A stretch of 13,292 nt of DNA. Source: a virus. The translations under genes were made by a program, and so were the position numbers. The stretch's first letter is position 1. Every line of letters begins with the position of its first letter. The DNA is taken from UHGV virus genome UHGV-0196552; one strand, given 5' to 3'. Shown piece after piece: positions 10,552-13,292 of the stretch. Below the pieces are notes generated by a model. It worked only from the letters and a program-made list of their open reading frames with translations. It was not told the origin of the DNA and did no database searches.

Positions 10552-12059
10552 TGTTCTGGAATAAAAAAGAAGTCACACAAGAAGCTAAACCTAAGAAACA
10601 AAAACAAGAGCGTAGTACTAAACCATCAACACTTAAACGTGATATTCAGGCAGTACGCAACACATCGGTTATGAATTTTGGATTTAATGCTAATTCAGGA
10701 AGCAATATCAACTTTCTGATATTTAAAGCACTATCTACCATGCGAGCGTTTTCACGTGATGCAGTACTTAAAAACCCAATTGGGCGAAAGTACATGAACC
10801 TTTCCGTGGATGGTGTAGTAGGTTCTGATGGTGTTTATGTGAAACCAGCGGTAGAGATTGACGGCAGCGAAGATGAAATTAACCAGATTAATGAACAATT
10901 AGAGAAACTATTTGATCGTTGGGCTTATGATCCAGACCGCTTTAGCGTCGATGGTGCTTTAAGTTTCGAGCTATTCCAACAAAATGTAGAGAAGATTAGG
11001 GTACAAGATGGTGAATGCTTTATCAGAATTCATACTATTAACCGTCAAATAAAATTAGAAATCTTAGATACTGCTCGTTTACAGCAATCCAATAACCAAC
11101 ATTTAGCCAATGGTAATTATATCAGTAATGGTATCGAATTTGACCAATGGCACAGACCAGTAAATTACTATTTCTCTAGATTTGATCCCGTTACGTACAC
11201 GTACAGTACTGGAGATTATGAAGTCATTCCGGCTAATGAAATATGCCACTACTTCATAGCAGACCAGCAAGGGCAGGAACGCGGATTACCCGATTTAGTC
11301 GCTACAAGTAAGTTAATTGAAGATCTGAAGAACTTCACAGAGGCTGCATTAACAGCAAAACGTGTAAGTGCTTCCAGTATGGCATTCATTACTAATAATA
11401 ACGACACTACCAGTACAGATCTGTTAGGTGCTGATGAGCGTGATGAAGTTACACCAGTATACACAGAGTACTTTGAAGCGGGCTTTATTGGTGAATTAGG
11501 TGAAGGGCAGGACATTAAAACTGTCACTCCGACGAATGGTGTAGATGGTATCGATCAGTTTACTAATGAACTCATGAATCAAATTAGCATGGGCTTAAAC
11601 GTAACTAAACAGGCTCTATTATCTGACACATCTAATGCTTCATTCAGTGCTGCACGATTAACAGAAAAACTACAACAAACCACTTTCCGTACTCGAACCA
11701 ATGTACTTATCAGTAAAGTACTCAAACCAATCTATATAGCTTGGTTAAAGAATGAAATGATTAATAACAGCAAATTGAATCTCAGTTTCTCAGACTTTGA
11801 TGATCTCATTTGTGCTCGCTACATTCTACAAAAGCCAATTAGTTTAGATCCTGTAAAGGATATACAGGCTGAACTACTTCAATTGGAAGCAGGTATTAAA
11901 TCTAAAACTCAGGTTATCGCCGAACTTGGTGGTGATCCAGTCAAGGTATTAGCAGAGGTACAGGCAGAAAAGGAAAAAGAAAACCCAAACAAGGAAGTTA
12001 ACCAGGATGGAAATCAAAAACCAGAAGAGGGAACTAACGATACCCCTACAGGCGATTAA
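10551..12059 (+). CDS. portal protein (lambda gpB-type)
   Basis: 502-aa ORF in the canonical portal position after terminase and W, translationally coupled on both sides. Size close to lambda gpB (533 aa). Assignment rests mainly on synteny and size. Confidence 0.75.
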
Positions 12060-13292
12060 TACAGAATCGCGAACTATCGATGTAGCGTTTTGCTCAGAAA
12101 CACCAGTAGAGCGTGAAATCAATGGTGAAATCTATAATGAAATCCTTCTATGCGGTTCTGATAACGCAGACCTACGCCGTCTTAATCAAAATGGTGCAGT
12201 ACTCTTTAATCATAATCGTGATGATCTCATTGGTGCTGTTGTATCTGCACATATGGACGCCGACCGTGTAGGACGTGCAACGCTACGTATTAGTACTACC
12301 GCTAATGATGAATGGGAAATGATTCAGGAAGGCGTACTAACACATATCAGTATTGGCTATAACATTAATGATTACTACATTTCTGGAAATAATATCTACG
12401 TTTCCGATTATGAAATCTATGAAATTAGCTTAGTTACAATACCAGCAGATGCTTCTGTAGGCGTAGGCCGTTCAATGGAATCCGATATTGAAATTGATTC
12501 ACTAAATAAAGCAGGTGAAACAATTCAAAAGGATCAATTCATGGAAGAAACAAATAACGATAGCGAAATTGAAACGACAGTAGACGCTACCGAACAGGAA
12601 GTTAAAGACGAAGTTGAAGAAGTAGTAGAACACGTAGATGAAGTTAAACGCGATCTAAGTGATGAAGAACTTTTAGATATTCTTTCTAAACGTCCTGACT
12701 TACTCAACAAAGTACAAGGTGAAGAACCGGAAATTATAAATAGTACTGATGATACTGAACGTGTACGCGAACTAGAAGCACTCGGTAAAGTACTTAATAT
12801 TGATGTATCGGATGCCATTGGTAAAGGAATTACCGTGACCGATTTCAAACGTCAATTGAATGACATTAAAAACAATCCTAATCATGATAAGGAAATCAAA
12901 TCGATGGATAAAAATCTATTAAAGGATATGCTACGTGCTATCAAAGCCGGTGATAAAACCTCTCTTGAAGGTTATGAATTCGGTAAGAATGGTTATGTAC
13001 GTGCTGTAGTACCTTCAACTAATACTACTACGGCTGCTGGTGTAGTCGCAGATGATCTACAAGACCAATATATTCCAGAGCTATTAAAGCTATCTGCTCT
13101 TGGTGAACTAAATACTACTGTTTATTCAGGCTTGGCTGGTCGTGGTAATCTTTCTATTCCTAAAGCTAATGGTGTAACTCCGGTATTTAAATTCTATGGC
13201 GAAGCAGAAGCACAAGATGATTCTATTGCTAACTTCACTAAAGTTACCCTAACACCAAAAGCATTCGGTGGTGCTATTCCACTAAGTAAAAC
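12007..13292 (+). CDS. prohead protease (HK97/S78-type) - scaffold-like acidic linker - HK97-fold major capsid protein, single ORF, 3'-partial
   Basis: Not in the supplied track because it has no stop within the window. ATG 12007 (AAGGAAG 9 nt upstream), frame open to 13292. N-terminal region has S78-like motifs ([23 protein letters not shown]). Middle is acidic and coiled-coil-like. C-terminal part matches HK97-family capsid pattern ([16 protein letters not shown] versus VTLTPKKLAALVPVS, from memory). Confidence 0.8.

Follow-up and report, generated by a model that had tools for sequence, protein, structure and literature searches.

Nested in-frame starts in head-assembly genes are established for phages lambda and Mu and for the herpesviruses, and the lambda genes C and Nu3 were reportedly described as a nested pair by Shaw and Murialdo in 1980. 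Genes that fuse a prohead protease to a capsid protein are also already established. For instance, Pseudomonas phage MD8 makes its protease, scaffold, and coat protein from one gene (PMC8508860). That paper does not mention internal starts, and our literature searches found no publication that describes nested initiation inside protease-capsid fusions. Here, we analyze a gene of this kind in UHGV virus genome UHGV-0196552, of which we have a stretch of 13,292 nucleotides (nt), which we will call the window. The open reading frame (ORF) begins at ATG 12007 and has no stop up to the end of the window, and it encodes 608 amino acids in L001, an IMG/VR contig that is 99.99% identical to the window and extends past its end. 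The conservation of this gene suggests that ATG 12904, which encodes Met300, is probably a working internal translation start.

We compared 38 non-identical copies of the gene for which DNA was available (41–100% protein identity) and 113 full-length protein homologs (44–98% identity), with the comparison loci drawn from IMG/VR, metagenomes, and GTDB. Met300 is invariant in all 38 genes and in all 113 proteins, and it falls in a low-confidence, poorly conserved linker. Methionines in the core of the protein vary more: Met105 is present in 106 of the 113 proteins and Met502 in 61. Just upstream, Lys295 is also invariant (113/113), and residue 296 is always acidic (59 Asp and 54 Glu).

Lys295 is encoded by AAG in 38/38 genes. 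AAG makes up 23.6% of the lysine codons in these genes, or 20.8% if the next codon is GAx, and most other conserved lysine columns use AAA. The context around Lys295 and Met300 varies (HDKEIKxM, NVKDNKM, or NIKDDEM), and the two residues are four or five codons apart, which gives a spacer of 7 or 10 nt. Variable spacing is expected of a Shine-Dalgarno (SD) sequence and its ATG and is unlike a peptide motif. Also, the codon before Lys295 ends in T if it encodes Asp (GAT) or Val (GTT) and in C if it encodes Ile (ATC). Together with the use of AAG, this indicates that a string of RNA is conserved, namely (T)AAGGA, 7 or 10 nt upstream of the ATG.

SD-like 9-mers are kept in at least 85% of the genes at six clusters in the ORF, and only the clusters at codons 173–175 and 293–295 are followed by a conserved in-frame ATG. 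The other clusters lie on invariant Glu-Gly, Gly-Ile, or Gly-Asp pairs or inside the overlap with the portal gene. The mean energy of the SD duplex is -6.3 kcal/mol at Met300 and -7.0 kcal/mol at Met179, the second candidate start, while other conserved methionine columns range from -0.1 to -3.4 kcal/mol, with one exception. In the window, the energy at ATG 12904 (-6.2 kcal/mol) equals that at the start of the 176-amino-acid gene in the position of lambda W, and it is stronger than at the small and large terminase genes (TerS and TerL). RNA folding around both internal ATGs is weaker than the median for the gene in 14 of 15 genes, and the domain boundaries in an AlphaFold model agree with the three starts (ATG 12007 and the two internal ones).

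The hexamer TAAGGA is the characteristic SD sequence of late genes in this family of phages. On the coding strand of the window, it occurs only at 7473, 10009, and 12888. Past the window, L001 contains three further copies: one lies 6 nt before the ATG of a 946-amino-acid tail gene, and another lies 10 nt before the ATG of the tail tube gene, which is the same spacing as at 12904. We surveyed 29 loci from the family and found 180 occurrences of TAAGGA, of which 118 are followed by an ATG within 4–12 nt. That ATG opens at least 90 codons in 104 cases (58% of all occurrences), as compared to 7.9% for the pooled results from 60 permutations of the same letters. TAAGGA recurs before the W-like gene, the first ATG of the fusion, the Met300 ATG, and the genes for head-tail attachment, tail fiber, and tail tube, and the Met300 site is among its most constant occurrences. 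These recurrent sites and the excess over the permutations indicate that (A)TAAGGA is the family's own ribosome-binding signal for late genes and is largely reserved for starts. TAAGGA pairs with the extreme 3' end of the enterobacterial 16S rRNA (...CCUCCUUA-3'), and this fits with the longer spacers too.

Alternatively, the gene might make only the full-length polyprotein, with the mature coat protein arising by proteolysis alone. Lys295, the acidic residue, and Met300 would then be kept for protein reasons, such as recognition by the protease or packing of the N-arm helix on the scaffold core, and the likeness to a ribosome-binding site (RBS) would be incidental or vestigial. Met300 does lie within a helix predicted by AlphaFold (residues 291–314), the literature on three-in-one genes describes no nested starts, and SD-like by-products of conserved residues do exist (at codons 105–108, 271–274, and 552–554). 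However, a peptide motif would leave several observations unexplained: the exclusive use of the rarer lysine codon (38/38 versus ~21%), the T before AAGGA with both Asp and Val codons, the distance of four or five codons, and why TAAGGA is largely reserved for real starts elsewhere in these genomes. Along with the ATG (113/113), these observations show that the signal is kept beyond what the protein sequence requires. So, we consider it unlikely that the polyprotein is the sole product.

Several points do weigh against an internal start at Met300. Among the best 120 of 1061 homologs, public annotations describe a single "phage major capsid protein" of 600–650 amino acids, which would fit with a lone polyprotein. 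Because AAG-GAx necessarily encodes Lys-Asp or Lys-Glu, a protein requirement for lysine, an acidic residue, and methionine is not fully separable from the RNA signal, and the shared descent of the sequences means that a count such as 38/38 represents fewer independent events than it seems to. The 10-nt spacer exceeds the usual optimum. Coding sequence that is rich in Glu, Lys, and Gly readily yields SD-like motifs, and the exceptional methionine column, residue 533, has an SD-like motif that is forced by an invariant Glu-Gly. Finally, we found no stand-alone capsid gene that begins at the Met300 position; a search with the C-terminal 309-residue protein gave only partial proteins at contig edges.

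The Met300 product would comprise the coat domain, preceded by about 50 helical residues at the N-terminus, and would lack the scaffold core (residues 247–288), which is upstream of the start. An initial annotation, made from the sequence of the window, had put ATG 12904 at the start of the capsid region. The ATG does not encode the first residue of the fold: the HK97-fold core comes 45–55 residues after Met300, which falls where the helical scaffold-like segment ends.

The initial annotation had been drawn to this site by an exact repeat of 18 nt, ATGATAAGGAAATCAAAT. We found exactly two copies of the repeat, both on the + strand and both at the expected coordinates (Table 1), and no third copy with up to three mismatches on either strand of the window (0.07 matches expected by chance). 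No other exact direct repeat in the window is as long, and only 1% of 300 second-order Markov simulations reached a repeat of 18 nt. As predicted, copy 1 carries the RBS of the 176-amino-acid gene, with a 6-nt spacer between TAAGGA and ATG 10021. The placement of copy 2 was also correct, as just 2 nt (CG) separate it from ATG 12904–12906, which is codon 300 in the frame of ATG 12007.

Only this genome and others nearly identical to it have the full identity of 18 nt. The block that is common to both sites measures 7–17 nt in relatives at 67–83% protein identity, and in a clade at under 50% identity, both sites have just TAAGGA(A) in common, with the gene structure unchanged. Because the identity shrinks in relatives and the TAAGGA core stays, the repeat reflects an initiation region and is not a repeat element. 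Our preferred reading is that the phage uses a stereotyped layout for initiation (ATAAGGAWAT, then an A-rich spacer and ATG) at both sites and that the two happen to match over 18 nt here; the His-Asp-Lys-Glu-Ile codons at copy 2 contribute to the match. The initial annotation had treated the repeat itself as the mark of the start and had tied the internal start to its persistence in relatives with the same gene structure. In those relatives the 18-nt identity is lost, and the SD core and the A-rich spacer persist, so only half of what was to refute the annotation is seen. In other words, the repeat pointed to a real feature without being that feature.

Another explanation for the repeat is that it is a scar of recombination or gene conversion without a present function. 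For example, a capsid gene that used to stand by itself could have left its old stop-plus-RBS junction (TGA TAA GGA...) here, either copied from the terminase/W junction or common with it; separate scaffold and capsid genes would have been joined by TGATAAGGA...ATG. Copy 2 does hold an out-of-frame TGATAA, which is the same stop-stop-RBS arrangement as in copy 1. Also, Faecalibacterium phage FP_Epona (L076) has separate protease and delta-capsid genes, 14 nt apart, which implies that such fusions arise from adjacent genes, and a few relatives have lineage-specific variants at both sites (ATCGA in L012 and L020; GGATAT in L014). However, a functionless scar would decay, yet the SD core and the ATG are invariant over 44–98% identity. 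There is no co-variation between the sites over the larger set, where variants (T/A or A/G) are mostly unlinked, and we saw no concerted evolution. Descent from an old gene boundary would not conflict with use as a start today, nor would it stand in for such use. A functionless scar therefore seems improbable.

It would be more improbable still that both copies are a shared operator, through which a trans-acting regulator (a protein or a small RNA) controls translation of the W-like gene and the capsid. The identity does reach 12 nt past the 6-nt SD core, and GATAAGGAWATC is found at both sites across the clade at 67–100% identity. But we found no complementary sequence elsewhere in the window (searching both strands) and no Rfam match in the window. 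The extended identity is absent from the clade at under 50% identity, which keeps the gene structure; the flanks of copy 2 are accounted for by the conserved His-Asp-Lys-Glu-Ile codons; and the tail tube and tail fiber starts share merely ATAAGGAWAT. Co-variation of the two copies, whether from gene conversion or from a shared operator, is unsupported, as few lineages share variants.

We also considered termination-reinitiation at the out-of-frame TGA 12885. This is ruled out because a TAA already closes that frame two codons earlier, which leaves no ORF to end at 12885. As for an internal promoter, there is one weak promoter-like match, at 12860–12888, and its expected transcript start falls after the SD sequence. 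Matches to sigma-70-like promoters are depleted across 9800–13292 (2 found versus 12.1 ± 3.1 expected).

The initial annotation missed a second candidate start at ATG 12541 (Met179), which lies at the boundary between the protease and the acidic linker. Methionine is found at this position in 36 of the 38 genes (the other two have a methionine two codons later) and in 100 of the 113 proteins. An SD-like GAGGA, AAGGA, or GAAGGTGA is found 4–8 nt upstream. This site (region A) is less strictly kept than the one at Met300 (region B): it is ATA in one Enterobacter prophage and lacks a good SD sequence in a Kosakonia lineage, and region B is intact in both. These losses count against a role for region A throughout the family. 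Nevertheless, based on its conservation, ATG 12541 is probably a second internal start that adds a scaffold-coat form of the protein.

Similar signals are found in unrelated fusions. Phage DCP80 (L072), whose fused gene is 33% identical, has AAGGA, 10 nt, and ATG at the homologous KKEIRTM, and also TAAGGA, 7 nt, and ATG after the protease domain. An SD sequence with an in-frame ATG just after the protease domain is also found in VP882, RcCronus (L073; GAGGA and 7 nt), Arya (L075; GAGGA and 7 nt), Persinger (L081; GAGGA and 9 nt), and CRP-811 (L080; TAAGGAG and 6 nt), and weakly in Alexa. Murka has no such pair after its protease domain. The separate genes of FP_Epona are divided at this same boundary. 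These observations suggest that protease-capsid fusion genes from unrelated phages generally have an unannotated start between protease and scaffold.

From the sequence features and their conservation, we infer the following scheme for initiation, product ratios, co-assembly, and cleavage. ATG 12007, inside the 3' end of the portal gene, would give the full protease-scaffold-coat protein, which would carry the protease and the scaffold into the prohead in cis. ATG 12541 would give a scaffold-coat protein like gp5 of HK97. Region B would give a coat protein of 309 amino acids without protease or scaffold, and its start is of the same stereotyped class as those of abundant structural proteins (the W-like protein, the tail tube, and the tail fiber). 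All of the products would share the coat domain, which would let them co-assemble, and the protease would afterwards trim the internal parts. The relative strengths of the start sites would set the ratio of protease to scaffold to coat. We propose only tentatively that there is a full three-tier, co-C-terminal set from ATG 12007, 12541, and 12904 whose stoichiometry (few proteases, more scaffolds, and many coats) is set by the strengths of the three starts. The portal gene runs 53 nt into the fusion (12007–12059), across its first 17–18 codons and in a different frame, and the overlap is kept in relatives. Ribosomes that are elongating on the portal message would cross the first start of the fusion, which might keep the full-length, protease-bearing product rare.

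The initial annotation was right that protease, acidic scaffold-like linker, and capsid share one stop-free frame. The ORF is uninterrupted in all relatives, at 598–652 amino acids. Residues 2–603 match positions 5–620 (of 626) of the profile for phrog_617, "major head protein" (E = 1.1e-80). There are 1061 homologs with E ≤ 0.001; the best 120 are mostly proteins of ~600–650 amino acids with both domains, and the rest of these are partial proteins at contig edges. Peptidase_S78 (PF04586) scores 36.2 bits (the cut-off is 21 bits), or 35.4 bits for the full-length protein from L001. His69 (12211–12213) and Ser115 (12349–12351) are invariant in alignments of 12 and of 40 homologs, and we take them to be the catalytic pair by similarity to His65 and Ser114 of HK97 gp4, not by structural superposition. 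Phage_capsid (PF05065) matches residues 346–604 of the protein from L001 (65.2 bits). The HK97 fold is mostly past the end of the window, with about 75 of its first residues inside.

The AlphaFold model was built with 40 homologs as input and has a mean predicted local distance difference test score (pLDDT) of 68.6. It has a confident protease (residues 15–150), a disordered acidic stretch (157–217), a helical region (219–288) whose last three helices (247–288) are the conserved core, a helix that holds Met300 (291–324), a low-confidence N-arm (322–353), and the HK97 fold from about residue 355. The top matches of the capsid in the PDB, according to Foldseek, are from R4C, HK97 (1ohg), and D3 (E = 5e-15 to 1.5e-12). 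Also, phmmer finds PDB entry 8gta (E = 1.9e-10), with residue 5 of 8gta aligning to residue 347.

The motif [Leu/Ile/Val/Thr]-Asn-[Ser/Thr/Lys] recurs at residues 165–167, 245–247, and 338–340, with a related Leu-Asn-Asp at 284–286. We speculate that it may mark sites of cleavage by the protease. Cleavage after Asn339 would give a mature protein of 269 amino acids; the R4C capsid chain has 268 residues and aligns from residue 343. The paper on the R4C capsid is silent on processing of the coat protein.

As a separate observation, the strongest peaks of synonymous-site conservation in the gene are at codons 160–171 and 240–249 (12502–12508 and 12735–12742), with observed/expected ratios of ~1.5–1.7. 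Both fall on a repeated Glu-x-[Leu/Ile/Val]-Asn-[Ser/Lys/Thr], encoded as xTA AAT A (CTAAATA or TATAAATA). At the first peak, leucine is CTA in 37 of 38 genes; at the second, the residue varies among Leu, Ile, and Val, and the A at the third position stays. The peaks may reflect a cleavage motif for the protease, an A/U-rich standby region for ribosomes that start at 12541, or some other feature. A nucleotide signal like the late promoters of T4 was rejected, as neither CTAAATA nor TATAAATA is enriched in the window.

Table 1. Positions of the fusion gene, its domains and candidate starts, the repeat copies, and adjacent genes in the window.
Feature	Position	Strand	Details
Repeat copy 1	10005..10022	+	terminase-large stop TGA 10006-10008, SD TAAGGA 10009-10014, first two bases of ATG 10021
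176-amino-acid gene	10021..10551	+	lambda W position; PHROG phrog_5774 match over residues 76-152
Portal gene (Phage_portal_2, lambda family)	10551..12059	+	Pfam
Full-length initiation region	11991..12009	+	AAGGA 11991-11995, 11-nt spacer, ATG 12007
Protease-scaffold-capsid ORF	12007..13292 (cut by window end)	+	608 amino acids in L001; phrog_617
Prohead protease domain, residues 15-150	12049..12456	+	Pfam Peptidase_S78 at 61-150
Acidic linker, residues 157-246	12475..12744	+	33% Asp+Glu; largely predicted disordered
Candidate internal initiation region A	12529..12543	+	AAGGA 12529-12533, 7-nt spacer, ATG 12541 (Met179); predicted scaffold-coat product, 430 amino acids
Helical scaffold-like core, residues 247-288, three helices	12745..12870	+	invariant R252, E255, L256, G260, F280, K281, R282
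Repeat copy 2	12884..12901	+	within fusion ORF, codons His293-Lys298; TAAGGA 12888-12893
Candidate internal initiation region B	12888..12906	+	TAAGGA 12888-12893 (Lys295 AAG + GA of Glu296), 10-nt A-rich spacer, ATG 12904; predicted product 309 amino acids
HK97-fold core start, from residue 355	13069..13292	+	preceded by helix 300-324 and a low-confidence N-arm 322-353; Pfam, AlphaFold model, Foldseek

The window contains head genes of a siphovirus-type prophage that is low in GC and belongs to Enterobacteriaceae. The GC content is 37.9% (1–13292) and genomes of Enterobacteriaceae are typically above 50% GC, so the prophage is markedly AT-rich for its hosts. The best genome matches are to Scandinavium lactucae (V105_6 carries the fusion gene at 95% DNA identity) and to a metagenome-assembled genome of Buttiauxella, and homologs of the fusion gene (among the best 120 of 1061) are annotated in E. 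coli, Enterobacter, Kosakonia, Salmonella, Citrobacter, and Klebsiella. A megablast search with 9900–13292 against a phage collection gave no match, and complete genomes of E. coli gave merely one terminase fragment, in one genome.

Upstream of the fusion gene are a Nu1-like small terminase, a gpA-type large terminase, the 176-amino-acid gene, and a portal of the lambda family. The initial annotation had called the 176-amino-acid protein gpW-like, a label that stands only by position, between terminase and portal as for W in lambda, and by a match of residues 76–152 to the PHROG family "head-tail joining" (E = 3.4e-9). The protein matches no Pfam family, including gpW, at E ≤ 0.01, and it is 2.6 times longer than gpW, which has 68 amino acids. 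A second direct repeat, of 15 nt (GCTAATGTTCTGGAA), is found at 10547–10561, where it spans the stop of the W gene and the start of the portal gene, and at 5742–5756, at the 3' end of a DUF3800 gene on the minus strand. Repeats of at least 15 nt occur in 21% of simulated windows, so this one is probably due to chance.

Past the window, L001 encodes head-tail attachment, tail fiber, tail tube, and tail chaperone proteins. The 946-amino-acid protein (8568–11408 in L001) is an odd fusion of tube and fiber: residues 1–152 match the major tail (tube) protein phrog_158, and the rest matches tail fibers, with a C-terminal Peptidase_S74 chaperone domain. It lies right ahead of a separate tail tube gene of 154 amino acids (11465–11929). 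In the window, apparent defense or accessory cargo lies upstream of the terminase genes, at 2705–4225 and at 5729–6883 (minus strand). It includes a 242-amino-acid HNH protein that matches Type IV methyl-directed restriction enzymes from PADLOC, an adjoining protein of 263 amino acids that matches a Type II methyl-directed restriction enzyme (E = 1e-62), and, on the opposite strand, the DUF3800 protein (384 amino acids).

Protease-capsid fusion genes are common. There are over 1000 homologs of this family in prophages of Enterobacteriaceae, and similar fusions are found in phages of Vibrio, Pseudomonas, Xanthomonas, Rhodobacter, and actinobacteria. All of these are annotated as single proteins. 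If they are single proteins, then each coat subunit brings a protease and a scaffold into the prohead, contrary to the low copy numbers of protease in well-studied phages. A conserved internal start, if it is used, would resolve how the fusions avoid having one protease per coat subunit, and a principle known from lambda C/Nu3 and herpesvirus UL26/UL26.5 would then take in the coat protein as well. The annotation of such genes, and their expression for capsid engineering, would also have to change.

How does this gene compare to the systems that it most resembles? As in lambda C/Nu3, there is a candidate in-frame start inside a head-assembly gene, which would give co-C-terminal proteins: a rare, enzyme-bearing form and an abundant, shorter one. 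The gene order is also as in lambda, with Nu1-like and gpA-like terminases, a gene in the W position, and a lambda-family portal ahead of this gene. The initial annotation had proposed nested translation in the manner of lambda, giving both a fusion and a separately initiated capsid protein. Conservation supports the nested translation well, but the analogy is inexact. Lambda's protease is from another family, its coat protein gpE is encoded by a separate gene, and it is the scaffold that is nested. In our gene, the ORF includes the coat domain, and the Met300 product would be a coat protein without a scaffold. The Met179 start is the closer analog of Nu3, and of the boundary between gp4 and gp5 in HK97, although its product would be a scaffold-coat protein and never the scaffold alone. 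So, neither internal start would yield a scaffolding protein as the shorter product, as lambda's does.

In HK97 itself, gp4 is also a Peptidase_S78 protease, gp5 has the same coat fold (1ohg; E = 1e-12), and the scaffold function is also at the N-terminus of the coat protein. In contrast to the gene that we describe, gp4 and gp5 are separate genes, and every coat subunit carries the delta domain; here the two are fused, and a conserved candidate start follows the scaffold core. The capsid maturation module UL26/UL26.5 of the herpesviruses (the subject of PMC4498786 and PMC11565193) likewise makes a long form, with protease and scaffold, and a short form that is nested and co-C-terminal; the two are made in a fixed ratio and co-assemble in the procapsid. 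Unlike here, a dedicated promoter and transcript give the herpesvirus short form, and the major capsid protein is not part of the module; our candidate has an SD sequence and an ATG, and we found no convincing internal promoter. Also similar are the other single-gene fusions: phrog_617 and phrog_4523, the "capsid and protease fusion" of SEA-PHAGES, gp5 of Pseudomonas phage MD8 (whose protease is of the ClpP/lambda-C type rather than S78), and Vibrio phage VP882 (L071), which has the same module of TerL, 176-amino-acid gene, portal, and fusion. The papers and records that we consulted on these fusions describe no internal starts. Our proposal is new in placing the coat protein within the nested set and in having the most conserved of the internal starts come after the scaffold.

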